A DNA stretch of 64,000 nucleotides, taken from a phage. The stretch is from sequence record PX423614.1; one strand, given 5' to 3'. The notes under the pieces are model-generated. The model was not told the DNA's origin and did not search any database. It worked only from the letters and a program-made list of their open reading frames with translations. Positions 8,045 through 30,781 of this stretch are shown here, in pieces. A program made the position numbers and the translations under genes. Position 1 is the stretch's first letter, and the number at the start of each line of letters is the position of its first letter.

Positions 8045-8269
8045 ATGAAGATTGATATTGATAATACCCCAGCGGTTGTAACTCTCGGTGATCTGAATTC
8101 GGGTGAAGTCTTCCAGTTTAACTACAACGAAACTCAATATTACATGCGTACTGCCTGTTATGGGGAAAACAAAAACTACTTTGTTAACCTCTCCACAGGT
8201 AAACGTGACTCTGAGTGTAAATCAACAGTGGTGCAGCGTGTACCTAATGTTCGACTGACCAATAAGTAA
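8045..8269 (+). CDS. small early protein, GDxF paralog family
   Basis: LNSGEVFQF pattern. Confidence 0.5.
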   Translation: MKIDIDNTPAVVTLGDLNSGEVFQFNYNETQYYMRTACYGENKNYFVNLSTGKRDSECKSTVVQRVPNVRLTNK

Positions 8270-8278
8270 CATCGACTT

Positions 8279-8306
8279 ATAGCCCTTGTGTTTATCAGAG
8301 GGCTAT
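8279..8306 (+). repeat. conserved hairpin ATAGCCCT...AGGGCTAT (copy 1 of a duplicated intergenic module)
   Basis: 8-bp stem; same hairpin at 13084-13111; both followed ~80 nt later by AACATCCG..GATAG. Confidence 0.5.
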
Positions 8307-8571
8307 GTGAGGATGTTCCTCAATTAACTATACTCTCAACGCCATATGGCTCACCGCTAGGGCGAGACTTGTCTCAAACATCCGGTGATAGACTAAAACC
8401 TGTTAATTTTCGAACAGCTTTCCGATATGTAGGGGTATGTATCGGTTTGGGATAGAGAACAATCTAGGGGTAGAGAGTTCTCGACAGTTAGTACAAGCGG
8501 AAGCCTTAACGTGTAGGGCTTCCCTTTATATTAACTGGCAAACCTGCCTCCACCAACAAAGAGAGAACGAT

Positions 8572-8712
8572 ATGAAGAAGACAACCAAACGTATGAACCG
8601 TCCTGAACGTATGGATGCAGTAGCAAATGGTGCTCTGAAGATTGAGTCTGCCATGCTTCGTCTGACAACTAACATCCGTAAGCGTCAAGGTGATTGGTTC
8701 TACGGTGGATAA
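8572..8712 (+). CDS. small basic protein (46 aa)
   Basis: AGAGAG RBS-like before ATG 8572; in frame of track ORF. Confidence 0.35.
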   Translation: MKKTTKRMNRPERMDAVANGALKIESAMLRLTTNIRKRQGDWFYGG

Positions 8713-13111: not shown

Positions 13112-13319
13112 GTGAGCTATTCTGGCTCAACTAACCTAATCTTAATTTAATCTTTCCCGTATGGGGCCGATGCTAGGGAGAGGAATAATCCTCGAACATC
13201 CGTCGGATAGAATATTTTAAGAGCAGGTTATCCACAGATATTGGGTGATATCTATTTAATTGGCCTTAAAGCTTGGCTCTCTTATGAGAGTCCTTTTTTA
13301 AGTTCAAAGAAGAGGTTGT

Positions 13320-13487
13320 ATGGATAATAAGTTGAAAGCTAAATTCTTATTGGCAGCAATCTTTATTTGCTTAGCCACTGTGGGGTTTGTCAGGATGTAC
13401 TCTTTTGCATCTTGCGAGTTAAGCAAGAATAACAGAGGGTCTTACAACTGGCTAACCAATCAATGTGACAAACAGGAGAAGTTATGA
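13320..13487 (+). CDS. small membrane/secreted protein (55 aa)
   Basis: AAGAGG RBS; hydrophobic N-terminus; stop overlaps next ATG. Confidence 0.4.
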   Translation: MDNKLKAKFLLAAIFICLATVGFVRMYSFASCELSKNNRGSYNWLTNQCDKQEKL

Positions 13488-13846
13488 ACCTACGCCCCAT
13501 TAAAGGCCATGTGAACCTGTCTACGCTTCATAAAGTAGCAAATGATTTAGGTGGTATGGATGAGGAAGATCTGAAACAGCAACTGCTTTGGATTTCTCAT
13601 GGTATCAAGGCGGCAAAGGCCAAAATGGCTCGTGCACAAGGTAAACTAAAAGCGAATAAATATCTTATTCGCCGTCGTAATACCTTACCTCAGGATGTGG
13701 TAAGTTTAGCTTTATCAGGATATAAAGCAGCAGAGGTAGAGCTTCAGGAAGCAGAGTTTGAAAAAATGCGCTTCCAAGAGAACTATCGAAACTTCCGTAG
13801 TATTGACTACATTCGCAAATCTCTGAGCCTTTTGGTAGCAGAGTAA
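13484..13846 (+). CDS. hypothetical protein
   Basis: ORF track; AGGAG RBS. Confidence 0.5.
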   Translation: MNLRPIKGHVNLSTLHKVANDLGGMDEEDLKQQLLWISHGIKAAKAKMARAQGKLKANKYLIRRRNTLPQDVVSLALSGYKAAEVELQEAEFEKMRFQENYRNFRSIDYIRKSLSLLVAE

Positions 13847-13856
13847 AGAGGTAAAA

Positions 13857-15074
13857 ATGTTCCCTGTAACACTTCAAAGCTGGAAAGAATCAGAAGACGT
13901 TGTAACTGTTTGGCCTCCTTGTTATGGTTTCCTGAAAGCAGGTTACTATCAGGGTGGTGATTATGGTGAAGATGAAGACGGTGATCCTGACTACTACTGC
14001 ACATACGACAGCAACTACGGCTGGAATATCCGCATTAAGGTGTGGAGTAAAAATATGATGGTTCGTCAAGGCACTGCCGAAGAGAACGTTCTCGAAAACA
14101 TGATGCCTATGTCCGAAATCAAGTACATCTGGAACTCTGGTACACACCTTCCCGCTTATGGTGTAAAACGCTATGGTGATAAAGAGCCTATTGCCACTCA
14201 ATATTTCCGTGAAGGGGTGGAGAATGGAGACCCTCGTCCACCTTCCCACGTAGAAACATGGGCAGAAGAAAACAACCGTCCTGATATTACTGATCGCGCT
14301 GTAATGGAAGCTTTTGAAGCATTCATGGATAAAGATTCTGACTCATGTCTGGTGTGGCATGAAGCAGGATTCATGGGTGTTTGTACTGATGGTTGTCCTG
14401 CTGATCGCGCTCTGTTCTATCTGATGCTGAATCGCACATTCTATACAGATGATGAAAAATCTGCTGTGTATGAAATGTTGAACAAGATGTATAAGAAGGG
14501 CTGGTCTCCTTTAGCCTCTCTTGCATTCAGCCGACTGATCAACTCTTCAGTGGATGTGTTCGGTAACGAACGTGTTGCTTTAACAGGGAATGATTATGAT
14601 TCCTGTATCTTCCAAGCATCTCTGTATACAGTGGGTGTTGGCAGTACAATGGTTGAACCTCGCCAGACCAAGTGGCGACAGTGTGAATACACCGAAGGTG
14701 AAGGGCATCTTCGTGATGAAGACTTCCCCAGTCTGCTCTACCGTAGTGAAGGTGTGCGAGACTGTCGAGTGAATAACTCAATGTTCTTACCAATCCTTCT
14801 TCCTCAGTATTGCAATCTGCCGAATGGTGAACGTCCGGTCATCACAGAGAAGTCACTCTTGGTTGAATTTATCCGAGAAGTGGCTGAATCTGAAACATCT
14901 TTTGATAAAATTGTGTTCGGTTATAACTGGAACAATGAAACAGCTTCAGCTCGAAGCTACAACACGTATAACATTATCAGTAGTATGTCCAATGGACTGA
15001 CAGGTAGTAATTATACAGTACGTCCCTCAGAAGAGTGGGAAACCATTATGGAAAAATTATTCTTTAATAAATAG
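13857..15074 (+). CDS. hypothetical protein (405 aa), first gene of ligase cluster
   Basis: long ORF with no motif I recognise; acidic Gly-rich N-terminus; co-oriented and tightly linked with the ligase genes. Confidence 0.55.
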   Translation: MFPVTLQSWKESEDVVTVWPPCYGFLKAGYYQGGDYGEDEDGDPDYYCTYDSNYGWNIRIKVWSKNMMVRQGTAEENVLENMMPMSEIKYIWNSGTHLPAYGVKRYGDKEPIATQYFREGVENGDPRPPSHVETWAEENNRPDITDRAVMEAFEAFMDKDSDSCLVWHEAGFMGVCTDGCPADRALFYLMLNRTFYTDDEKSAVYEMLNKMYKKGWSPLASLAFSRLINSSVDVFGNERVALTGNDYDSCIFQASLYTVGVGSTMVEPRQTKWRQCEYTEGEGHLRDEDFPSLLYRSEGVRDCRVNNSMFLPILLPQYCNLPNGERPVITEKSLLVEFIREVAESETSFDKIVFGYNWNNETASARSYNTYNIISSMSNGLTGSNYTVRPSEEWETIMEKLFFNK

Positions 15075-15082
15075 AGGCGAAT

Positions 15083-16033
15083 ATGTCAATCTCCGCATCG
15101 ATTGCTCCGGTAACACCGGCAGAGGATTTCGGTGAGTCAGTGTTCAAAGGAAGAGCTTGCTTTGGTACTTTTAACTGTATGCACATGTATTCTGTTACAG
15201 ACATTAACGGTGAAAGTCGTAACCGAACAAGCCTTCGTGATAGAACTTCAGAAATTGAAGTTATTAACTTCTGGCCTCACAATTTTTATGGCGTACCAGC
15301 TAAAGATATCGAAAGAGCTTTGGTTGAAGCAACAGACATTTTTAACTCAATGTCTTGCTATAAAGATATGTTCTCTGTCACTTCGGTGAACTCTATTGCC
15401 GTGAACCTTCGAAACCATCCAGCAGACAAGGTGTTTACTGGACTAATGACCATCCGTAGCTATTTGGATGGTGATTTTAATGGAATGGAGTTCCTTCAGG
15501 AAGGCGTACAAGACAAGGAAGAGTTGCTTAAGCGACAACGAATCGGTTTAGCTCTACGCCTAGCTGGTTTAAGTCGTAACTTCTTTGGTCGCTGGTGTTA
15601 TAGTAATGACGTAGACTCAACTGATGAGTCAGCAGCGACTTATTTTGATGGTGACATGAGTGCAATTGCATTTCTGCCACTAATTTGCACCACTGATGAA
15701 TTTTCTGAAAACGTATGGGTTCAGAATGTGTTCGGTGTTGATGATAACCGAGATGGTTATGTACGAAACCATAATGATGGAGTTCTCCGTCGTATGGCAC
15801 GTCGTCGTGACCAAGACCCTGACCATTACGAGAGTATGAGTGAATGGTTACGTCTCTGGTCAACTTGTGCAGGTCACAAGAGAGAAGTATTAGATCAGCG
15901 TATGGATAGAATTACTGTTCGTAGTTTTATTGAACGTCTGATGCAAGCAGTACCTTCCTCAATGACACCAGAAGAAGCTGGTGCCCGTGTTGTTTCCCTT
16001 TTTGATGAACTCGTGGAGTATTACAATGACTAA
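15083..16033 (+). CDS. hypothetical protein (316 aa), ligase cluster
   Basis: long ORF; no recognisable motif. Confidence 0.55.
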   Translation: MSISASIAPVTPAEDFGESVFKGRACFGTFNCMHMYSVTDINGESRNRTSLRDRTSEIEVINFWPHNFYGVPAKDIERALVEATDIFNSMSCYKDMFSVTSVNSIAVNLRNHPADKVFTGLMTIRSYLDGDFNGMEFLQEGVQDKEELLKRQRIGLALRLAGLSRNFFGRWCYSNDVDSTDESAATYFDGDMSAIAFLPLICTTDEFSENVWVQNVFGVDDNRDGYVRNHNDGVLRRMARRRDQDPDHYESMSEWLRLWSTCAGHKREVLDQRMDRITVRSFIERLMQAVPSSMTPEEAGARVVSLFDELVEYYND

Positions 16034-16832
16034 GCGCGCTTTCCTTATTGGCTCTGACCCTGAAATGTTTGTTCGTACTGCTTCCGGTATTATCACCTCT
16101 GTGGCTGGTAAGCTGGGCTGTTCTAAAGATAATAAAATTGATCTGGCTCCTGATGTTCGTCTTCAAGAAGACAACGTTCTGGCTGAGTTTGATATTAACC
16201 CACAGAAAGGGTTTGAAGCGTTTGATGATAATATTCAGCGTGGTATTGATCTGACTAACAAAGTTCTCAATGAACGTGGCATGGAGGCAGCACTTGGGAT
16301 TAGCTCTCATGTGTTCACTTCAGAAGAACTTGAATCATTCCACCCGTCAGCTTTTGTATTTGGCTGTACTCCTGATTTCAATGCCTTCACTGGACAAAAG
16401 AACCCTTCACCAGTCGCAACTGATAAGGGTTTGCGTACTGCTGGGGGTCATGTGCACCTTGGTGTCTCCGGGACTTTAGAGATTACTCGACAAACTCAAA
16501 TGATGTTGGGTGTGTTGTGTGATTACTTCCTGTCCTTGCCAGCTGTGATCATGGATAAAGACACTCGTCGTAAAGAGTTGTACGGAAAGGCTTCTGCCAT
16601 TCGCTACAAAGATTACGGTATTGAATATCGTTCTCTTTCTAACTTCTGGATTGGTGATAAGTCCACTCGCAAGTTTGTTTATGAGCAAGTGGATAAGGTT
16701 GTTCAGGGTTGTGATATGGAAGTGTTGATGTCACTTCACTCTCGCCTTCCAATTGAAAAGCTTCACAACATCATCAACAGCAACGATGTTAAAGAAGCGG
16801 ATAAATTCTCCTCTAAACTCCAGATTGTATAA
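16026..16832 (+). CDS. amidoligase-like protein, paralog A
   Basis: shares four ordered motifs with the 17465-18565 product: GSDPEMF/GIELEVEG, LAEFxxxP/CELVxxxP, GGHVH/STHVH, YGIEYRS/GSVEFRIS; start 16026 has a GGAG RBS. Confidence 0.4.
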   Translation: MTKRAFLIGSDPEMFVRTASGIITSVAGKLGCSKDNKIDLAPDVRLQEDNVLAEFDINPQKGFEAFDDNIQRGIDLTNKVLNERGMEAALGISSHVFTSEELESFHPSAFVFGCTPDFNAFTGQKNPSPVATDKGLRTAGGHVHLGVSGTLEITRQTQMMLGVLCDYFLSLPAVIMDKDTRRKELYGKASAIRYKDYGIEYRSLSNFWIGDKSTRKFVYEQVDKVVQGCDMEVLMSLHSRLPIEKLHNIINSNDVKEADKFSSKLQIV

Positions 16833-16841
16833 GGTGATATT

Positions 16842-17468
16842 GTGAGCTTGTTAAGAGATTTTCAACACTATTATTGTGGAACATGGATTGCTCAGCGATC
16901 ACCTGATGGTAAAAACCTCCCTCTATATGTGCTTGATGTTCGTCAGCAAGGTAACTTTGATATCGACGACTATTCACACGACGCTGAAATGTCTTTAGTG
17001 TTTGAGGCGGAACGCTGGACTAAAAACTCTGAAGGTCAGTTTGAACGTCAGGTTGTTAGTAATATCCCAGTGTTTGATCACAGCCTCATTCTGGAGTCTC
17101 CAGATGTAGGATACCTTCAGCATGGTAATAACATGGTGAGCTGGACCCATATCAACCCTGTTCGTCAGCGAGCTAAAGGCTTGATGGGGAATAAACTTCG
17201 TGGTGCTCCGCCTTCTCTCGGACGTTCGATTCCGGGTGATTTGGTGTACAACCTGTTTAATCCAGAGTTTGAAGGGTTGGTTACTCGTTTCATCTATATC
17301 AATCCTGTCGATGGAAAAGTTTATTACAAAGGAGCTTACGTTGGAAACGTGCTTCTTGAAGCTGGTTATGGCGACAATGGTCGTCAATCTTTAAACCTTC
17401 TGGAGAAGTTCAAGCATATTTCTTCAGACCTGTCATCATATAATGTAGAGTTGGTGGAATCATTATGA
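16842..17468 (+). CDS. hypothetical protein (208 aa), ligase cluster
   Basis: ORF track; between the two amidoligase-like paralogs. Confidence 0.5.
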   Translation: MSLLRDFQHYYCGTWIAQRSPDGKNLPLYVLDVRQQGNFDIDDYSHDAEMSLVFEAERWTKNSEGQFERQVVSNIPVFDHSLILESPDVGYLQHGNNMVSWTHINPVRQRAKGLMGNKLRGAPPSLGRSIPGDLVYNLFNPEFEGLVTRFIYINPVDGKVYYKGAYVGNVLLEAGYGDNGRQSLNLLEKFKHISSDLSSYNVELVESL

Positions 17469-18565
17469 CAACCGTAGCACAAGTTTTTGGATACCGTAAC
17501 CCTCGCTTATCTGAACCGCATCCAAGTATTGCTTTTCAGTGTGGTGTTGGTATTGAGTTAGAAGTCGAAGGTACAACTGACATTGACGCTGATATGTGGG
17601 TTTGTACTGAAGATGGCTCTCTTCGTGATGGTTGTGAATTAGTATGTGCACGACCTTACAACGGTGAAGAACTACTTCGTGCTATTAACAATCTGAGTGA
17701 AGCAGTACAGGATTCCGGAGCCGAGGGAACTTGGCGCTGCTCCACTCACGTTCATATGGATATGCGTGACGCTGATAGTAATATCCTTAAGAAAGTTATT
17801 CTTGGATGGACGTTCTATGAAAAGATGATGTTCAAATGTTCTGGATACCATCGCTATCGTAGCAACTTCTGTCCAGCTTTTGCTGTCGTTCAAGCACAAG
17901 TTATGAATGCTTCGTCAGCGTTCAACCGAGACGGGGAAGCTTTCTTCCACTCTCTTGTTAATAGCTGGGATAAATATACCTCCCTTAATCTTTTGCCTCT
18001 ATCTCAATTTGGTTCTGTTGAGTTCCGTATCTCAGAGCCGAAGTGGAAAAAGAGCCAACTTCTGAATCTGGTCAACCGCTTCTTGGTTCTCAAGAAACTG
18101 GCTGTTGAATATGCAGATTTAGACAATGAAGCTTATGTTGAGAAGTTGAATGAGCTGCGCTTCGCTCCTATGATTCAACATCTACCCCTAGACTATACTC
18201 CAAGAGACAGCGATCTCACTGAAGGGTATCGTCTTGCTCGTGATATTCTCTTCTGTCGTGAGCAATCTGTAACTTTGGTTGGTCGTGTTCGTGTGCAACA
18301 GACTGGCCCTGATGGTGAAGTCCTTATCAACTTACGTGATATGAATGACTTCTATGGTTTCTTGGGATATGTGCGCGGTAATGCCAACAGTGTCTACGAA
18401 GAGATCATGACCTACTACACCCCTCAGATTGAAAGCACTCGAATCGCAACGGTTCGTGAAATTCGTCACATATTTGCATTGATGCGTGAATCAGGTAGCA
18501 GTGATGATAACGTCACTGGTTATATTCCAGACCATCTGGAAATGCAATTAGAACGACTGCTGTAA
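17465..18565 (+). CDS. amidoligase-like protein, paralog B
   Basis: E-x-E, E, H-x-H and E-x-R motif series shared with paralog A; this pattern is typical of glutamine-synthetase-like carboxylate-amine ligases. Confidence 0.4.
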   Translation: MTTVAQVFGYRNPRLSEPHPSIAFQCGVGIELEVEGTTDIDADMWVCTEDGSLRDGCELVCARPYNGEELLRAINNLSEAVQDSGAEGTWRCSTHVHMDMRDADSNILKKVILGWTFYEKMMFKCSGYHRYRSNFCPAFAVVQAQVMNASSAFNRDGEAFFHSLVNSWDKYTSLNLLPLSQFGSVEFRISEPKWKKSQLLNLVNRFLVLKKLAVEYADLDNEAYVEKLNELRFAPMIQHLPLDYTPRDSDLTEGYRLARDILFCREQSVTLVGRVRVQQTGPDGEVLINLRDMNDFYGFLGYVRGNANSVYEEIMTYYTPQIESTRIATVREIRHIFALMRESGSSDDNVTGYIPDHLEMQLERLL

Positions 18566-18642
18566 CACAACGGGCGCTCTTATACAGGGCGCATTTAAAG
18601 GTTAATTAGATGAAAGGGTTTACCCTTCAGGTGGATTAGAAA

Positions 18643-20676
18643 ATTTGTGGTATCGTATTAGCTGGCGGCAACATGACCTCAGCAGATTTGGACATTTTCA
18701 ACCAACTTCTGTATGCTGGTGTTTTCCGTGGACAGCACTCAACTGGTGTGTTTGGTCAGCGTAAAGGTGAAAAGCAAGTCTTCTCTTATAAAGAAGCTCT
18801 TCCTTCTTATGCTTTTATGCTCCAGACAGAATATACAAATATTACCAAAGGGCTTACGAACTACGTAGTTCCTCCTTCGTGGATTGTTGGTCACAGCCGA
18901 CATGCCACTCGTGGGGCTGTCAATGCTCGAAATGCTCACCCATTTACTCACGGGGATATTACTCTGGTTCATAATGGAACCCTGTTAGATCAAGATCTCC
19001 TTCCTGACAGTAAGCGTTTCGAAGTTGATAGTGAAAACATCTGCCACTCAATTAACACCATTGGAGCAGCAGAGACTATCCAAAAACTGGATGGTGCATT
19101 CACTTTGATTTGGCATGATGCTAAAGACAACACGCTTCACATTATCCGTAATGATGAGCGTCCTTTCCACCTAGCCCGCTGTGGTTTGGATTGGTTTGGA
19201 GCTTCTGAAGAAGCTATGCTTATGTGGATTTTAGAGCGTTCTAAGTCCCATAAGAACCGTATCAATGACCACTTCGAATGTAAAGTGGGAACTGAGTATA
19301 TCTTTGATGTGTCTAACAGTCGTATGACTCTGGTTCAAGAGGTGGAGCACACGCTTCCGGTTTTTACGGTAACGAGTCGCTGGGGCGGCTATTACTCGAA
19401 CTCCTCTCTTTATCAGAACCAACAGACAAACAAATCAAGCAGCAGCACAAGCGACATTTACGGAAACAAAGACGACAAGCCCGGCGTGACAAGCGGAGAC
19501 ATTCGTCGTCGTAAAGCGATTGAAGACCAGAACAAACTGGCTGCCGATCGTGGTCTTCCTTATCGTCGTGATGGTCGTGTGGATATTATTCCTCATGAGT
19601 TCCATGCTTATAACAACACAGATCGTGGTAAGATGGTTGGTTACATCTACGATGATAAAGCTCAAGAGTATGTCGAAGGGGATGTTCACAACGTAGCCAA
19701 AGATGAATATCTTAAGGCTCTTGAAAACCCAAAGGTAGTATATCGCGGGACGATTGCTTGTATCTCCGAAGTGGACAGTATGATTCGCCTCGTACTAACT
19801 TCAGGGCTGTTTGTTGATGCTACAGATAAGGAGCCTCAAAGCACTACTGCTGATTTTGATGATGATATCCCTTTTGATGCAGAGGACTCCTTCATCACTA
19901 AGAATGGTGTAGAAGTCACTCGTAAGTTCTGGGAATCTCACTCTCATGGTGACTGTGGTGGTTGTGATAAGCACATTGACTGGAAAGATGCTCGTAAGGC
20001 TGTGTTTGCTTATCAGGCATACTGGCATCCAGAATGCTTCGAAGCGTTATCTAAAACCTCTGAAGAGGAAGAAGATGTGCCTTTGGGTGTATGTGCTATC
20101 TGTGGTGAAGTCAAGACTGATTTCGAGTTTGACAACGAAATGAGTAAACTTCGTGGTGAAGACGTTTGTTATATCTGCTCCAAAGAAATCAAAGATAAAG
20201 TAAAGAATGTTACTCTATCTGAAGGTTATATTTGGACTAAAGCAGTAGACACAACCAACCCACGTCGTCCTGAAGTAGCTGTTCGTGTTGATGAACGTAT
20301 GCTTAGCCGTATGATTGTAATGGTCAGCTCAGCAAAACGTTCAGGGGATATTACACTTGCAGATGTTCCTAATTCGTATTTGGAAAAACGTGGTGGTGAT
20401 ACTTATGCCATCTCTGTTTATGGTCCAAAGAATTCCCCAAAGGAGGTACCCGCTGAGAAAGCGGAGACATTTCCAGAAAAGTCAACCTCTCTCCGAAAAA
20501 CAGTTGTCAGTTATGATGGACAACGAACAGCTGAGTTTACAAAAGCCCTCTGGACTTCAATTGGGTTTTGTGCAGTCTGTTATAAACAAATTCCGTGGCG
20601 TGATGCAGAAACTTGCTCACTGAACAAAGAAAACAGGGTGATCTGTAATTCAGATTACTGTAAAGGTAAACACTAA
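18643..20676 (+). CDS. class-II glutamine amidotransferase-like domain fused to Cys-rich zinc-ribbon-like C-terminal region
   Basis: in-frame upstream extension encodes CGIVLAGG, matching the N-terminal nucleophile block (M)CGIVG of PurF/GlmS/AsnB; RG..STG, GHSRHATRG, NAHPF and VHNG motifs; C-terminal CGGC, CAICGE, CYICSKE, CAVCYKQ clusters; first in-frame ATG is at 18673. Confidence 0.55.
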   Translation: MCGIVLAGGNMTSADLDIFNQLLYAGVFRGQHSTGVFGQRKGEKQVFSYKEALPSYAFMLQTEYTNITKGLTNYVVPPSWIVGHSRHATRGAVNARNAHPFTHGDITLVHNGTLLDQDLLPDSKRFEVDSENICHSINTIGAAETIQKLDGAFTLIWHDAKDNTLHIIRNDERPFHLARCGLDWFGASEEAMLMWILERSKSHKNRINDHFECKVGTEYIFDVSNSRMTLVQEVEHTLPVFTVTSRWGGYYSNSSLYQNQQTNKSSSSTSDIYGNKDDKPGVTSGDIRRRKAIEDQNKLAADRGLPYRRDGRVDIIPHEFHAYNNTDRGKMVGYIYDDKAQEYVEGDVHNVAKDEYLKALENPKVVYRGTIACISEVDSMIRLVLTSGLFVDATDKEPQSTTADFDDDIPFDAEDSFITKNGVEVTRKFWESHSHGDCGGCDKHIDWKDARKAVFAYQAYWHPECFEALSKTSEEEEDVPLGVCAICGEVKTDFEFDNEMSKLRGEDVCYICSKEIKDKVKNVTLSEGYIWTKAVDTTNPRRPEVAVRVDERMLSRMIVMVSSAKRSGDITLADVPNSYLEKRGGDTYAISVYGPKNSPKEVPAEKAETFPEKSTSLRKTVVSYDGQRTAEFTKALWTSIGFCAVCYKQIPWRDAETCSLNKENRVICNSDYCKGKH

Positions 20677-20687
20677 GAGGTATAGTT

Positions 20688-20921
20688 ATGGAAGTTCGTA
20701 AACTGATGTTGGATAACGTGGTAACTACCCGCCGTATTCCGATGACAAGCACAGGATGTGATAACCTCCGAGCAATTCAGAAGTGGATGCAAGAAGGTAT
20801 TGGGAAGCTGGTTGACTCTCCAGTAGAAATCCCTTTTCCAACCGTTATCAATAACGTGTTGGCTGACTATGTTAAAATGAAGGGGATTAAAGTTGAGCCT
20901 CATGTCAAGCAAGGGAGCTAA
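20688..20921 (+). CDS. hypothetical protein
   Basis: ORF track; GAGG RBS. Confidence 0.45.
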   Translation: MEVRKLMLDNVVTTRRIPMTSTGCDNLRAIQKWMQEGIGKLVDSPVEIPFPTVINNVLADYVKMKGIKVEPHVKQGS

Positions 20922-21123
20922 GCCTCACCTGACAATGCTGGAGTATCAACAACTCCGACTTCAACAACTGGTAACGGAGCAGCGAAAGCTGTATCCGTTT
21001 GCTTTTAACTTAATCGACTCTCCAAGCGATGCCCAAGAAGACGAAATGTTCGCTGAGTATTGGGCAATCGAAGCTAAAATTCAATCCTGTCGTAACGAAA
21101 TTCTTAAACTAAAAGGTATCTAA
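20893..21123 (+). CDS. hypothetical protein
   Basis: ORF track. Confidence 0.4.
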   Translation: MSLMSSKGAKPHLTMLEYQQLRLQQLVTEQRKLYPFAFNLIDSPSDAQEDEMFAEYWAIEAKIQSCRNEILKLKGI

Positions 21124-21125
21124 AA

Positions 21126-22361
21126 ATGACTACTCGTATCCGTGTTCTTCCGTATGGCCCGTCTGATTCTGTTAACGCTCTGGTATCTGCTATCAGTGAT
21201 ACTATCCGTGATGAACGCATCAATGCTAACGTGATGGGGCTTCTTTCAGAGAATAGCCGCTGGCGTTCTCGTGAAGGTGATGTGGTTGTTAACTACGGGA
21301 ACCGTCGCTATCCTGAATCATTCTTTGGTTCTGCAACCGTCCTTAACCGTACCGCAGCCTTATATATGGCAGCGAACAAACGTCGTGCTTTCAGTGTGAT
21401 GGACCAAGCAGGTGTTAAAACTGTGGAATACACAGATGTTCAAGAGACTGCTCAGGAGTGGTCAAACACTGGTAATATTGTGTATGAGCGCCATGAGCTG
21501 ACTGGTCACTCTGGTTCGGGCATTGTTGTTGTAGAACCGGGTGATTCAATTGGTCAAGCTGAACTGTACACCAAAGGTATTCAAGGCCCACGTCGTGAAT
21601 GGCGTGTCCATGTGTTCAAAGGTGTAATCACCTATGTTCAGAAGAAGATTCGTCGCAATGGTTATCGCGAAGACCCTAACTATCGTGAAGATATTCGTAA
21701 TCACCACACTGGCTGGGTTTACTCAAGCTCCTTCACAGATGCTCCGAATGACGCCTCTCTGATCAATGCAGTGAAAGCTGTTGAATCAATGGGTCTGGAT
21801 TTCGGTGCAGTTGATATTATCACCAAAGGTCAAGAAGCGTGGGTACTGGAAGTTAATACAGCACCGGGCCTGACTGGTACAACTCTGGATACTTACCGTC
21901 ATAACATTCTTGAGTTTGTTAAAGCTCAAAACCCTCTCTATACTCCTCAGTATAAAGTGGTTTACCAGACTCCGATTGAAGATGGAGACGGTGAGTTGGT
22001 GGATGATATTGAAAGTGCTGATGATGAAAACTTTGCACTGGAAGGACAAGTAGCACAGCCGATTGATTCAGTTGATGTGGTTCCTGAAGAAATGCAACTG
22101 GAAGGTCAGATGAATACTCAAACTATTCGTAATGCACCTACTGGCTACACTTTGTCTCGTGGCTACTGGATTGCAAATATCCGTCATGTCCACAACAACC
22201 TGCAACCGAATGCAATGTCTGCCAATGTCATCCTGTTCTGTGATGGTCGTAACTTCTACCGCAGTGGTTGGAACGTTCCGGTCAATCCAGTCCAGATTCA
22301 TAACCCTCGCAAGTTAGAGTCTGTCAATGTTGAAGGTAGCGAAGTAGCAGTAACTCTGTAA
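21126..22361 (+). CDS. ATP-grasp family ligase (RimK-like)
   Basis: GSGIVVV, E-W-R-VHVF and the DFGAVDII...VLEVNTAPGL block typical of ATP-grasp enzymes such as RimK, glutathione synthetase and D-Ala-D-Ala ligase. Confidence 0.6.
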   Translation: MTTRIRVLPYGPSDSVNALVSAISDTIRDERINANVMGLLSENSRWRSREGDVVVNYGNRRYPESFFGSATVLNRTAALYMAANKRRAFSVMDQAGVKTVEYTDVQETAQEWSNTGNIVYERHELTGHSGSGIVVVEPGDSIGQAELYTKGIQGPRREWRVHVFKGVITYVQKKIRRNGYREDPNYREDIRNHHTGWVYSSSFTDAPNDASLINAVKAVESMGLDFGAVDIITKGQEAWVLEVNTAPGLTGTTLDTYRHNILEFVKAQNPLYTPQYKVVYQTPIEDGDGELVDDIESADDENFALEGQVAQPIDSVDVVPEEMQLEGQMNTQTIRNAPTGYTLSRGYWIANIRHVHNNLQPNAMSANVILFCDGRNFYRSGWNVPVNPVQIHNPRKLESVNVEGSEVAVTL

Positions 22362-22387
22362 TTAAATTAAACAAAAAGGAATTTGTA

Positions 22388-22630
22388 ATGTTGTCTATCG
22401 AAGATTTGATCAGCCGTGGAATGACCGAAGAAAAAGAGCCTCTGATTGTAGGCTCTCGTAAAGCTATCAACCAACTCTGTGAAGAGTTCGGTATCACAAA
22501 TAAGAGAATGATTGGTAATCAGTTCTCTGCAATCATCACCTTCCTCAAACGAGGTGATAAATGTTCAATGGAATGTGCTGAGCGTATCATCGCAATTGCA
22601 CAAGCAGATAAGGGAGTAACAAGTCTGTGA
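22388..22630 (+). CDS. hypothetical protein
   Basis: ORF track; AAAGGAA RBS. Confidence 0.45.
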   Translation: MLSIEDLISRGMTEEKEPLIVGSRKAINQLCEEFGITNKRMIGNQFSAIITFLKRGDKCSMECAERIIAIAQADKGVTSL

Positions 22631-22812
22631 ATAAATACACAATCATGTTTCGTACAATGTCAGCAGAAGGAAATATTCAATCTCTGGACATTCAAGCAGA
22701 TCGCTTTGAATCACTTGGAACAAGTGTTAACTTCTTCCGAGGTACAGAGCTAGTGGGTACATTCCAATCTGATGTGTTGACTGGTGTGATCAAACACTTC
22801 GAAGTAGAATAA
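22627..22812 (+). CDS. hypothetical protein
   Basis: ORF track. Confidence 0.4.
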   Translation: MNKYTIMFRTMSAEGNIQSLDIQADRFESLGTSVNFFRGTELVGTFQSDVLTGVIKHFEVE

Positions 22813-22869
22813 TTTGCTTTAGCCTCTTCGAAAGAGGAGGCTAGTTCGAATTTAACTAGAGGTTGTAAA

Positions 22870-23286
22870 ATGGTTAATAATAAACTGGATATGTTTAAAA
22901 GTCGTATCTTAGATGTAGAGTATTCCAAAAACCTCTTTGAGAAGCACAAGAAAGAGGCAAAGGAAGAGTTAGAAAGTCTTCTGAAAGATGAAGAGATTCC
23001 TCTCTTTGATCGTTGGTGCTTGTTTCTGGAACACGGTGACTTATTTCCTGTAGCTTCAAGTGTAATTAGTAGAGCTGTTACAAGTGCAGTGGAAGGTTTT
23101 TATGACTTGGAAAGATACCGAACTTATATCTTCTCTGATATTTTTGAAGAATACTGGTTTGGTGAAAAAGAGTCAATTTCTGATGAAACCAAGAAAGCCA
23201 TTAAGGGATGTTTTGAAGAATTCCCTGAAAAGCCAATCCGATCAATCATCTTCTCTGGATATTCTGGTTTCCAACATGATTGGTAA
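22870..23286 (+). CDS. hypothetical protein
   Basis: ORF track; GAGG RBS. Confidence 0.5.
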   Translation: MVNNKLDMFKSRILDVEYSKNLFEKHKKEAKEELESLLKDEEIPLFDRWCLFLEHGDLFPVASSVISRAVTSAVEGFYDLERYRTYIFSDIFEEYWFGEKESISDETKKAIKGCFEEFPEKPIRSIIFSGYSGFQHDW

Positions 23287-23292
23287 GCAGCC

Positions 23293-23490
23293 ATGAAAAA
23301 GATTCTATTTTTCCTCTCCTTATTCAGTGTGTCAGCGATCGCCGCTGATGAATGCATCTCTAAAGATTCAGGGAGAGGTCAAATCATAACTCAATGCGGC
23401 AGCCATGTAACAGTTGTCGATTCTATAACTCAAACAGTTCTCGTGTGTAACGGGACTTCTTGTACAAAAGAAATTTTAAACAAAAGGTAA
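23293..23490 (+). CDS. small secreted protein
   Basis: signal peptide MKKILFFLSLFSVSAIA. Confidence 0.45.
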   Translation: MKKILFFLSLFSVSAIAADECISKDSGRGQIITQCGSHVTVVDSITQTVLVCNGTSCTKEILNKR

Positions 23491-23494
23491 TGTA

Positions 23495-23926
23495 ATGTCT
23501 GATAAAGTATTAGTTGCAACGTATGGTTCTCTTCGTAAAGGTCAACACAACCACGCTATCAATGCTCGTGCAGGTGGTGTGTCTATTGGTGAAGGGTGGA
23601 CAGTAAACAACTGTAACCTGTATCAGTATTGCACAGCATACTTCCCAAGTGTATCTTTGGAGCATGACAGCAATGGTAAGCCTGTTCGTGTAGAAGTCTT
23701 TGAAACAACCCAAGCTGGTCTGGAAGGTCCGTATGACGGTCTGGAAGGTCATCGTGGTAATGATAACCCATACACCTTTTACAAGCGTACACTGATTCCA
23801 GTATTATTGGACAGCGGTGAAACTGTGGAAGCGTGGATTTATCACATCGACGAAGAACAAGATGTTCTGGTTGAATCTGGTGACTGGACAGCATATCTGG
23901 CAGGTGAGAAGGATGACAGTAACTGA
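23495..23926 (+). CDS. gamma-glutamyl cyclotransferase-like (AIG2/GGCT family) protein
   Basis: N-terminal YGSLRKG motif, LEGPYDGLEGH...Y.R and C-terminal AWIY match the AIG2/GGCT fold signature. Confidence 0.6.
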   Translation: MSDKVLVATYGSLRKGQHNHAINARAGGVSIGEGWTVNNCNLYQYCTAYFPSVSLEHDSNGKPVRVEVFETTQAGLEGPYDGLEGHRGNDNPYTFYKRTLIPVLLDSGETVEAWIYHIDEEQDVLVESGDWTAYLAGEKDDSN

Positions 23927-26489: not shown

Positions 26490-27962
26490 ATGATTAAGAT
26501 TCCATTGTCTGAATTGAACCTTCAAGAAGGAGAAGCCCTCAGTGTAGGGCTTGACCTGATTCGTAATTTGATCAGAGATAACGTAGTCCCTGATGGCATC
26601 TATCCTGTTATTGCAGGTGGTGCTATCCGTGATACGTTCTTCCAAAATAGAACTCCGAATGATGTTGATATCTTCCTAGTTCAAGGAGGGTTTCGTTGGA
26701 ACACTCGTCAGGAAAACAGCCCTGCTAACGTAGGTAATGCTGCACTTTTCCTTGACAACTTCTTATCTTGGACAGAAAGTAAGGGGCTTCAGGTTACATC
26801 TCGACTAATTCAGCCTGTTAACGGGACAACCTATGCTGAAGCGCTTTTCACTTTCCAAGAGATTCTGGAAATTGAGATTGATCAAGTTAAAATCCAGATG
26901 ATGATTAATCTACCTTTGGATATGGATACTTTAAGCCGTCGCTTCCCTATGATCTGTCAAGGGTTTATGACTCTTGGTAATCTGTATGTGTCAAACGAAG
27001 GTTTGTTTGCAATGTCATACACTCGTGACATTCCTGTGGTATCTAGTCGTGAAATGAAGTACGTTCACAAGAAGTGGCCTGAAGCAACTGTTGCAGTTTA
27101 TAGCAGTTCTACCGAATATATGCACCTTGCAATGGGAGCTTTCGGTGAGCCAGAAGTTCACCTGATTAGTGATTTAGTTGGACCTATGGCTGGTGTAAAT
27201 TTATATCAGAATCAGCGTCGTCATTATACCCTGAAGATGATGGAAACTATATTAAACATTCCTCAGGAAAGGGGTCGTAGTTATCTGGACGAGGAAGTTA
27301 ACCTACAGACAGAATGGTCTAGTGGATTAACCACTATAGGTGCTGAAGCAATCACGCAGCCTTGGACTCCGGGAACTAACAGACGAGATCTTCAAGCTTT
27401 TAATGAAGAAACTTCTCGAACAGTTCGAGGAGGTGTTGTAGGGTATAACGTACAACCTCATGAAAGACCTCGTGACACTTTCACTGGCAGTTTTGGTAGT
27501 GCACGCTCTTCTGGAGTGGATACTCGTACATGGCATGTCCAAGGAGGAACTGCTCGTCCTATTCCCTCTCCGTCAATGGATGATTTGCAGCGTTCTCGTC
27601 GTTCATGGGAAACAGTAAGCTCTGTTGTTCAGGGTCTACGTGCTAGAGATATTGAACGTGTAGAAGTTGGTGATTTGCCAACCCCTACAGAAGATCGAGT
27701 ATCAGCTATAGCGGCTCGTGAAGCTGCTCATATTGGTTTTGCATCATTAACTAATGACGCTAACGAAGCTCCTCGACCTGTTGGTCGTCGTAATGGTCTA
27801 GCTCACTCTGACACTGCACTTGGTGCAGAACTACGAGCAGCAGCTCGTGAGCTATCTGGTGAGCTTCACAACAACCTAGCAGGTGTTACACTATCTCGTG
27901 AAACAGCTCGTAATATGATTAATAATTTGGCATCATCTGTACAAGGAAACAGAAACTCATGA
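26490..27962 (+). CDS. polymerase-beta superfamily nucleotidyltransferase with disordered Arg/Ser/Thr-rich C-terminal half
   Basis: VIAGGAIRD...NDVDIF matches the GG...DxD head-domain signature of CCA-adding/poly(A) polymerase-type nucleotidyltransferases. Confidence 0.45.
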   Translation: MIKIPLSELNLQEGEALSVGLDLIRNLIRDNVVPDGIYPVIAGGAIRDTFFQNRTPNDVDIFLVQGGFRWNTRQENSPANVGNAALFLDNFLSWTESKGLQVTSRLIQPVNGTTYAEALFTFQEILEIEIDQVKIQMMINLPLDMDTLSRRFPMICQGFMTLGNLYVSNEGLFAMSYTRDIPVVSSREMKYVHKKWPEATVAVYSSSTEYMHLAMGAFGEPEVHLISDLVGPMAGVNLYQNQRRHYTLKMMETILNIPQERGRSYLDEEVNLQTEWSSGLTTIGAEAITQPWTPGTNRRDLQAFNEETSRTVRGGVVGYNVQPHERPRDTFTGSFGSARSSGVDTRTWHVQGGTARPIPSPSMDDLQRSRRSWETVSSVVQGLRARDIERVEVGDLPTPTEDRVSAIAAREAAHIGFASLTNDANEAPRPVGRRNGLAHSDTALGAELRAAARELSGELHNNLAGVTLSRETARNMINNLASSVQGNRNS

Positions 27963-30125: not shown

Positions 30126-30315
30126 ATGATTTCACTGATTGTGTGGGCCGTGTGGTCGTTAATAGTTGGTACTGTTATATATATATAAAGCTCGAAATTT
30201 AGCAATTAAAGAAAACCCAGCAGAAGAGGATGTTAAAGCTATCAAGCTAGGTAGTGTTGTTCTGGTACATTTTGCTATAACACTACCTCTTGTTATTATT
30301 CTTTGTATGCTATAA
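30126..30315 (+). pseudogene. frameshifted tandem paralog of 29931-30116 (interrupted at an (AT)5 tract)
   Basis: frame 0 stops after 20 codons within ATATATATATA (30177-30187); a +1 shift restores a C-terminal half similar to the upstream paralog. Confidence 0.4.
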
Positions 30316-30505
30316 GGAATCCAAAGAGTGAAACTAAACCTACCTGAAGAATTACAAGCACATGCCATTATCGTTAGTGGCTGTGTGATGGGTCTTGGTC
30401 AGACAAAGAAGATTGCTCATGACTTAGCAAAAGGTCAGTATAAATCTTTTATTGTTGTTCCTGCTACCCAGCGTCATATCAACCTGTTTATTAACAAGGA
30501 ATAGA

Positions 30506-30781
30506 ATGAGTAAAGTAATTAAGTTTTATAGTAATTCATGTGCTCCGTGTGCAGCTATGGCTCCTGTGTTTAAGAAGGTTGTGGCTGACTATAGTGTAGA
30601 AGTTGAAGAAGTAAATATCTCTGAAGGTGATGGTCGAGAGCGAGCCGTTGAATATGGTGTTCGCAGTATCCCAGCCTTTGTCGTCCCTGATAAGAACAGT
30701 GGTGCTCATTATAGTTTATCAGGTATGCAAACTGAATCTAATCTCCGTGCATTTTTAGACACGGCTCTGAAAGGTATTTAA
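30506..30781 (+). CDS. thioredoxin/glutaredoxin-like protein (CxxC active site)
   Basis: KFYSNSCAPCAAMAP CxxC motif in thioredoxin-fold position; downstream IPAFVV cis-Pro-like motif. Confidence 0.5.
   Translation: MSKVIKFYSNSCAPCAAMAPVFKKVVADYSVEVEEVNISEGDGRERAVEYGVRSIPAFVVPDKNSGAHYSLSGMQTESNLRAFLDTALKGI

Follow-up and report, generated by a model that had tools for sequence, protein, structure and literature searches.

What acceptor a phage might modify with a set of enzymes that make and cleave amide bonds is the question raised by a gene cluster in sequence record PX423614.1, of which a stretch of 64,000 nucleotides (the window) was analysed. A preliminary description of the cluster, at positions 13,857 to 23,926, had read from the translations a glutamine amidotransferase-like protein, an ATP-grasp ligase, two amidoligase-like proteins, a gamma-glutamyl cyclotransferase-like protein (GGCT) and three proteins of no assigned function. 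All eight open reading frames (ORFs) were found where that description had placed them, on the + strand, and profile searches (Pfam, PHROG, NCBIfam) bore out its enzyme identifications. The cluster is the phiEco32-type amide-ligase cassette, intact in the window and widely conserved in phages. On balance, we consider it an operon specific to phages, expressed early and located next to the replication genes, whose soluble cytoplasmic products probably build and trim a glutamyl-type peptide or amide adduct.

Identity of the cluster

The 10-kb region shares 97.8% DNA identity over its full length with Escherichia phage vB_EcoP-101114UKE3, about 97% with SU7, EK010 and the BASEL phages Bas86 and Bas87, and 89% with ECBP2. 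Because of the near-identity to UKE3, SU7, EK010 and Bas86/87, the source is, judged by its sequence, a phiEco32-like E. coli podophage of the subfamily Gordonclarkvirinae and an ordinary member of a well-sampled phage group. The cluster contains a ligase of family PF14395, an amidoligase of family PF12224 adjoining a class-II amidotransferase, an ATP-grasp ligase and a GGCT, and is syntenic with the cassettes of phiEco32, LUZ24 and RIO-1. The phiEco32 cassette itself (phi32_80-88) consists of the same genes in the same order and differs in nothing essential, the Kuravirus amidoligase being about 70% identical in protein sequence to that of the window.

The cassette is already known, contrary to the novelty implied in the preliminary description. 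As reported by later papers that cite the work, Iyer, Abhiman, Burroughs & Aravind (2009, Mol Biosyst 5:1636) described phi32_80-88 by computation and proposed that superinfection is prevented through changes which the amidoligase and amidotransferase of phiEco32 make to the cell wall. The Pfam title of PF14395, “Phage phiEco32-like COOH.NH2 ligase-type 2”, is taken from the phiEco32 protein, indicating that the cassette was the founding example of the family. Duhaime et al. (2017) described a seven-gene “peptidoglycan modification cassette” which, in their citation of Hardies et al. (2013), is kept in RIO-1, phiEco32, 7-11, PA11, tf, MR299-2, LUZ24, PaP3 and CW02, and a 2025 paper used the name “putative peptidoglycan modification module”. 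The peptidoglycan function carried by these names is a literature hypothesis. In line with the earlier statement that no experimental characterisation was known, we found no biochemical or genetic characterisation of the cassette in the literature, where Iyer 2009, Hardies 2013 and Savalia 2008 were represented by the papers that cite them; the experimental data consist of expression timing and parallel mutations.

To these descriptions the present analysis adds a conserved ATT start that restores the catalytic cysteine of the amidotransferase and is mis-annotated in several public records, a quantified co-conservation with fixed gene order, the paralogy of two accessory proteins (X1 and X2) together with a confident X1 model that has no solved structural relative, a barrel-type model of the 208-aa protein Y, and literature evidence against a general modification of DNA.

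The amidotransferase starts at an ATT codon

A Pfam search with the 667-aa ORF of the amidotransferase-like protein (GAT) identified GATase_6 (E 2.6e-14). This ORF, which runs from the ATG at 18673, begins MTSADL and not, as had been claimed, with the nucleophile block CGIV. The block does exist, but it lies ten codons 5' of the ATG, in frame and right after a stop codon (TAG AAA ATT TGT GGT ATC GTA), so that it is read only from an ATT start. A catalytic cysteine placed directly after the initiator methionine is obtained only if translation starts at this ATT, at 18643.

Several observations point to this start. Seven bases 5' of the ATT, sequence reading identified a Shine-Dalgarno element, GGTGGA (18630-18635, + strand), which recurs unchanged in SU7, in Paul and in the ECBP2-like and KBNP1711-like loci. 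The Kuravirus phage Paul keeps TAG-AAA-ATT-TGT with synonymous changes and has no ATG at the position found in the window, and all other lineages begin with ATG-TGT-GG (M-C-G). The PHROG 4736 and GlmS NCBIfam profiles both align from the cysteine. Because ATT-TGT and its Shine-Dalgarno element are conserved, the other lineages carry ATG-TGT, and the profiles align from the cysteine, the real GAT product is, on these sequence grounds, a 677-aa class-II, N-terminal nucleophile (Ntn) amidotransferase-like protein encoded at 18643-20676 on the + strand, with ATT as its initiation codon. This weak start may keep the level of GAT low. Public annotations of the gene conflict: SU7 is annotated from the internal ATG (667 aa), Paul from an ATG about 110 codons further down (562 aa), and Bas86 with a 2034-nt coding sequence of the full 677-aa length.

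With the ATT start, the nucleophile Cys1, whose loss would have spoken against an amidotransferase, is kept, and the residues that hold glutamine align as well. Alignment to GlmS (1xff) paired HSRHATRG with HTRWATHG, VHNG with VHNG and DSE with DTE. These segments contain what we take to be the glutamine-binding and oxyanion residues of GlmS, presumably numbered Arg73, Asn98-Gly99 and Asp123. The Ntn domain thus retains Cys1 together with the residues that bind a glutamine or gamma-glutamyl head group through its free alpha-amino and alpha-carboxyl. The glutaminase domain occupies the N-terminal ~230 aa and is followed by an unassigned middle and a C-terminal region with the four CxxC motifs noted earlier (CGGC 438, CAIC 484, CYIC 509 and CAVC 643, in 677-aa numbering). 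A fused synthase (acceptor) domain of known type was not found: residues ~230-677 match no family, the C-terminal region alone giving a sub-threshold LIM match. A true amidotransferase role would presumably need one of the ligases as a partner. The LUZ24-like amidotransferase differs in being shorter (~510 aa) and in having an ATG start.

The ligases and the cyclotransferase

The 268-aa protein lig2 (16026-16832, + strand; homolog of phi32_86) matches the phiEco32-type COOH-NH2 ligases of PF14395 (E 2.6e-8, 33.9 bits against a cutoff of 25) and PHROG 3815 (E 1.6e-112), and its invariant residues are D11-P-E13, E54, H142-x-H144 and E200-x-R202. The 366-aa protein amid (17465-18565, + strand; homolog of phi32_84) matches PF12224 Amidoligase_2 (34.2 bits, cutoff 22) and retains G29-x-E31-x-E33-x-E35, D50-G-S-L-R54, E58, H95-x-H97 and E186-x-R188 across five lineages. 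The two proteins have ordered E, H-x-H and E-x-R motifs in common, each invariant within its family. The preliminary description had credited both with four shared motifs beginning with E-x-E and had called them paralogs. The H-x-H and E-x-R motifs do occur in order, but the first motif of the 268-aa protein is D-P-E, and “paralogs” overstates the relation, since BLASTP detected no similarity and hhalign of the family profiles gave E 0.89. They constitute two separate Pfam families, placed in a common superfamily in the literature. Sequence and profile searches of the PDB revealed no solved relative for lig2 or amid; the lone match, to a designed protein, was treated as chance.

SU7 (8202-8672 of locus L001) and Bas86 (30216-30686 of locus L006) carry an insertion, a gene for an HNH homing endonuclease, at the 5' end of lig2 or close to it, and the Bas86 ligase coding sequence is annotated as a join of two pieces. 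The window has no such insertion near 16030.

The third ligase, of 411 aa (21126-22361, + strand), belongs to the ATP-grasp superfamily, and its profile matches suggest a RimK/MptN-like alpha-L-glutamate ligase type, although the RimK-subfamily scores fall below their cutoffs. It matches PHROG 2599 (E 2e-169) and, among NCBIfam models, MptN (E 3.9e-9, 36 bits, cutoff 350) and rimK_fam (E 1.8e-6, 27.5 bits, cutoff 143). Alignment to RimK in the PDB (E 2e-3) places D230...E242-V-N244 on the RimK EVN region. The VLEVNTAPGL block noticed earlier lies at residues 240-249, and the metal ligands D230, E242 and N244 are intact. The best-scoring characterised relatives are the RimK/LysX/MptN/CofF alpha-L-glutamate ligases, with which the D...E-x-N metal motif is common, but the phage enzyme scores far below their family cutoffs and has about 140 additional C-terminal residues. 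This lineage-specific extension (residues ~270-411, encoded at 21936-22361), which is absent from the 294-aa LUZ24 enzyme, comprises an acidic linker and a small domain matching phrog_20552.

The 143-aa GGCT (23495-23926, + strand) matches PF06094 (GGACT/AIG2; E 9e-16, 59 bits, cutoff 22.8). The AIG2/GGCT signature YGSLRKG read in the preliminary description was located at residues 10-16, and the catalytic glutamate is, by eye, probably E84 within D-G-L-E-G. Taken together, the catalytic motifs of the three ATP-dependent carboxylate-amine ligases, the Ntn glutaminase domain and the GGCT appear intact.

Conservation and gene order

Searches of GenBank phages by tblastn detected amid in 294 records and lig2 in 310. 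By host genus, the respective counts were 120 and 121 for Pseudomonas, 93 and 94 for Escherichia, 11 and 11 for Aeromonas, 8 and 8 for Proteus, 7 and 7 for Salmonella, and 6 and 6 for Cronobacter. The cassette is thus present in about 300 sequenced phages, among them LUZ24-like phages of Pseudomonas and phiEco32-like phages of E. coli that have served in therapy work, and also in marine phage metagenomes.

Gene content was scored in 41 loci, 34 of them IMG/VR loci with an amidoligase and the others from GenBank, by iterative hidden Markov model searches over all ORFs; the set is drawn from at least four phage lineages and includes some truncated loci. While lig2 and amid were present in all 41, GAT was detected in 40, the ATP-grasp gene in 39, Y in 34, GGCT in 27 and a gene for a small DUF7195 protein in 26. 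An unassigned ORF of about 200 aa occupies the Y slot in most loci that lack Y. The order lig2-Y-amid-GAT-(DUF7195)-ATP-grasp, followed by primase/helicase, is near-invariant, and amid adjoins GAT in nearly all loci, while the position of GGCT varies. LUZ24 (gp14-gp22), Salmonella phage SE131, RIO-1 and Paul all show this synteny; in LUZ24, PaP3 and tf (Bruynoghevirus) and in SE131, the same core order is followed by GGCT and primase/helicase. Because the same genes recur in the same order in 41 loci from different phage lineages, their clustering is not due to chance, and the co-conservation on which the earlier reading depended proved strong in related and distant phages alike.

Accessory proteins

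The cassette of the window contains further proteins that accompany the enzymes. X1 (405 aa, phrog_13063; 13857-15074, + strand) and X2 (316 aa, phrog_13102; 15083-16033, + strand) were found to be paralogous over a core of about 110 residues (hhalign Prob 90%, E 1.4e-6). This significance was reached only with a broadened X2 profile, a first comparison with narrow alignments having been weak (E 0.075). X1 and X2 share their family with the 303-aa upstream protein of 7-11-like phages, in which the amidoligase has an additional N-terminal part, and members of the X2 family were found in 18 of the 41 loci, reaching into 7-11-like and Aeromonas phages. The predicted model of X1 is confident, yet it matched nothing among solved structures.

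At the equivalent place LUZ24 encodes two proteins of about 320 aa. Profile comparison detected no homology to X1 or X2 in LUZ24-like gp14 and gp15 or in the upstream ORFs of marine phages, and BLASTP of LUZ24 gp14, gp15 and gp17 against their positional counterparts of 405, 316 and 208 aa gave nothing significant; PHROG profiles, however, join the 208-aa Y to LUZ24 gp17. NCBIfam contained no match for the 405-, 316- or 208-aa proteins.

Y (208 aa, phrog_4877; 16842-17468, + strand, GTG start) is a core component of the cassette and models as SH3-like (SH3/Tudor-like) beta-barrels, a predicted non-enzymatic fold. Among 1.84 billion representative proteins, its family comprises 84 clusters, in which no informative domain fusions were found, only low-complexity tails.

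The gene s1 (20688-20921, + strand) encodes the 77-aa DUF7195 protein (PF23825, E 3e-19) and lies between the GAT and ATP-grasp genes, the position it holds in 26 of the 41 loci, including LUZ24 (gp20). The DUF7195 protein was considered as a LysW- or Pup-like carrier or tag and rejected, because its C-terminus is not conserved.

Proposed function

The preliminary description had seen in these enzymes a toolkit for gamma-glutamyl-type amide or peptide bonds, and this general reading fits the families found. It is an established pattern that ATP-grasp and COOH-NH2 ligases from linked genes act one after the other in peptide ligation (PMC4431377); because of this pattern, we propose that the three ligases would form successive amide bonds on one acceptor, building a short glutamate-containing peptide or an amide adduct. 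The ATP-grasp enzyme would add glutamate, since its nearest characterised relatives are alpha-L-glutamate ligases. The amid protein and the adjacent GAT would act as a pair, either in the glutamine-dependent amidation of an activated carboxylate or in the removal of gamma-glutamyl groups, and GGCT would trim a gamma-glutamyl group. Y, DUF7195 and X1/X2 would provide acceptor recognition or further chemistry. The acceptor would more likely be a host cytoplasmic macromolecule or an envelope precursor (a protein, or UDP-MurNAc-peptide) than DNA, and the modification may help the phage to take over its host or shield the infected cell.

The logic of an ATP-dependent ligase coupled to a glutaminase or gamma-glutamyl cleaver appears, by analogy, to be shared with MurT/GatD, PuuA/PuuD, glutathione synthesis with the gamma-glutamyl cycle, and BtrJ/BtrG. 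In butirosin biosynthesis, BtrJ (an ATP-grasp enzyme) and BtrG (a GGCT) provide a precedent for gamma-glutamyl as a transient group. By sequence, however, the phage cassette could be assigned to none of these four systems, from which it differs in its three ligases and its phage-only accessory proteins.

Two published experiments bear on timing and selection. For HP1, a RIO-1-like phage, the cassette was reported to precede the genes for host takeover and DNA, its members having been “expressed immediately” (PMC7082346). In directed evolution of the Pseudomonas phage FJK.R9, the 15- and 30-round lines both acquired missense changes in the amidoligase and amidotransferase genes (PMC11450229).

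Several points weigh against the proposed adduct-building pathway. No substrate, product or phenotype has been reported for any cassette gene. GAT and GGCT look redundant if both only cleave, GAT being either an ammonia donor or a gamma-glutamyl hydrolase. The predicted fold of lig2 and amid derives from Pfam families and motif reading, because no solved relative is detectable by sequence. The ATP-grasp protein scores just below the threshold of the Pfam RimK family (19.7 bits, cutoff 21), and only its C-terminal half aligns to solved RimK. Finally, GGCT was detected in only 27 of the 41 loci (some of them truncated), X1 in only 12 and X2 in only 18.

Candidate acceptors

A murein precursor and a host protein are, in our assessment, about equally likely as acceptors, a metabolite somewhat less so, and DNA unlikely. 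In the first case, the ligases would add unusual linkages to cytoplasmic murein precursors and GAT and GGCT would trim them, altering the wall so as to block, for instance, superinfection or untimely lysis. Ddl families appear among the weak matches of the ATP-grasp protein. Murein peptides contain a gamma-glutamyl link, and their D-Ala-D-Ala is made by an ATP-grasp enzyme. Peptidoglycan modification is the function proposed by Iyer et al. (2009), as cited, and repeated in the “cassette” and “module” names; most named hosts are Gram-negative Proteobacteria, and the immediate-early expression in HP1 (PMC7082346) is consistent with such a role. The case is nonetheless one of analogy. The cassette contains no Mur-ligase, MurT/GatD, flippase or periplasmic component, and all its proteins are predicted to be cytoplasmic, with no transmembrane segment or signal peptide predicted in any of them. 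The best ATP-grasp matches are alpha-L-glutamate ligases (RimK, MptN) and not Ddl, and a wall change beneath the outer membrane would not obviously exclude other phages. We regard peptidoglycan modification as a tentative explanation.

Held just as tentatively is the tagging of proteins, in which glutamate or peptides would be added in a RimK- or Pup-like manner to a host protein (S6, RNA polymerase) or a phage protein, with Y as adaptor and GAT and GGCT as erasers. The closest solved and NCBIfam relatives of the ATP-grasp ligase include RimK, the S6 glutamate ligase; Y is conserved and predicted to be a non-enzymatic SH3/Tudor-like barrel; and the C-terminal region of GAT with its four CxxC motifs, found in the E. 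coli lineage, might form zinc-binding modules. The early expression in HP1 (PMC7082346) suits this explanation as well, and a role of phage ATP-grasp enzymes in modifying host proteins has been suggested (PMC4431377). Against it, no target has been reported, and the cassette encodes no small protein with a conserved C-terminal Glu, Gln or Gly that could be the tag; unlike the RimK/LysX systems, it lacks a partner resembling S6 or LysW whose acidic C-terminus is conserved.

Alternatively, the cassette might make or recycle a small gamma-glutamyl compound, either a peptide (for instance a glutathione-like thiol) or an amine conjugate (for instance a gamma-glutamyl-polyamine), an explanation to which we give a little less credence. 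The enzyme set parallels both glutathione synthesis with the gamma-glutamyl cycle (GCS-type ligase, ATP-grasp synthetase, GGCT) and PuuA/PuuD. RIO-1 has a gene for glutaredoxin two genes downstream of its cassette, and the nucleotide block of Gordonclarkvirinae includes one for thioredoxin. However, up to three or four conserved non-enzymatic or unassigned partners (Y, DUF7195 and, in some lineages, X1/X2) would be unexpected in a simple pathway, and no ribonucleotide reductase is annotated in the portion of Bas86 examined.

Identification of the acceptor of the proposed glutamyl-type adduct would reveal a new chemistry of host takeover, by peptide tagging or the editing of wall precursors, or, with lower probability, a new modification of nucleic acids. 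The BASEL phages Bas86-93 infect a derivative of E. coli K-12, which makes the question genetically tractable.

DNA modification and restriction

An adduct of an amino acid or glutamyl group on phage DNA or a nucleotide, protecting against restriction, is very improbable, because two cassette-bearing relatives have restriction-sensitive DNA: that of tf was cut by RsaI, HpaI, EcoRV, SmaI and HaeIII and cloned, and that of the LUZ24-like U17 was cut by 11 of 16 enzymes. The preliminary description had favoured this adduct by the proximity of nucleotide-metabolism genes, a preference that is not sustained, since those neighbours are an ordinary dCTP deaminase and ThyX. Clusters for DNA hypermodification (thymidine hypermodification, 7-deazaguanine, Mom) likewise lie beside replication or nucleotide genes, and the phage lineage is resistant to restriction-modification (RM), but none of their signature enzymes was detected here: no sign was seen of a ThyA-type hydroxymethylase, a 5-HMUDK kinase, DpdA or any further known enzyme of hypermodification, the rest of the window having been checked through the Bas86 annotation.

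What speaks for a DNA adduct is that the cassette always adjoins replication genes and that the window retains restriction sites. The BASEL work found the phage group (Bas86-93) to be, unexpectedly, RM-resistant in experiments. The window keeps 12 EcoRI, 17 EcoRV and 6 EcoKI sites, those of EcoRV and EcoKI near expectation and those of EcoRI at about half of it, and avoidance therefore does not explain resistance to these enzymes. It is conceivable, though at equally long odds, that in Gordonclarkvirinae the cassette forms an adduct on DNA or a nucleotide precursor, extended in this lineage by X1/X2 and the CxxC-rich GAT, and so causes the RM resistance of the group. The BASEL authors point instead to the dCTP deaminase and a nucleotidyltransferase, which might underlie a DNA modification. 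Both genes come after the split DNA polymerase exonuclease gene, the nucleotidyltransferase (490 aa, phrog_12715) at 26490-27962, with no Pfam match and a long low-complexity C-terminal half. The close relative Bas86 also encodes ThyX and thioredoxin.

Some short palindromes are selectively avoided in the 64,000-nt window, which is relevant to the reported RM resistance of the phage group. CCWGG (Dcm/EcoRII) does not occur (82 +/- 9 expected), nor does CTGCAG (18 expected); GGATCC occurs once (9.6 expected), GATC 126 times (244 expected) and GGCC 49 times (112 expected).

Flanking and interleaved genes

A consensus scan placed a terminator-like hairpin with a T run at 13275-13292 (+ strand), a probable upstream boundary of the transcription unit; the SU7 terminator is annotated at the equivalent place. 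A scan for sigma-70 promoters returned fewer matches than shuffled sequence and was uninformative, and a PADLOC search gave no defence-system match. The first gene of the block (13484-13846, + strand) encodes a 120-aa protein of no assigned function (phrog_11370, PHROG E 8e-60) and lies directly 5' of X1 in 12 loci, all of the Gordonclarkvirinae type. Between s1 and the ATP-grasp gene, s2 (20893-21123, + strand) encodes a lineage-specific 76-aa protein (phrog_13464; in 12 loci).

Between the ATP-grasp gene and GGCT, positions 22388-22630 (+ strand) encode an 80-aa homolog of the phiEco32 transcription regulator gp79, identified from the annotation of Paul, where gp79 is described as shown to act as a transcriptional regulator. 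This homolog occurs only in Gordonclarkvirinae-type loci and is probably not part of the pathway. The window further resembles ECBP2, and differs from SU7 and Bas86, in an accessory insertion 5' of GGCT (22870-23490), otherwise seen only in an ECBP2-like locus (L007). The insertion comprises a gene for a DUF7020 protein (138 aa) and a 65-aa ORF that has no PHROG match and encodes a signal-peptide-like N-terminus (MKKILFFLSLFSVSAIA) and four cysteines.

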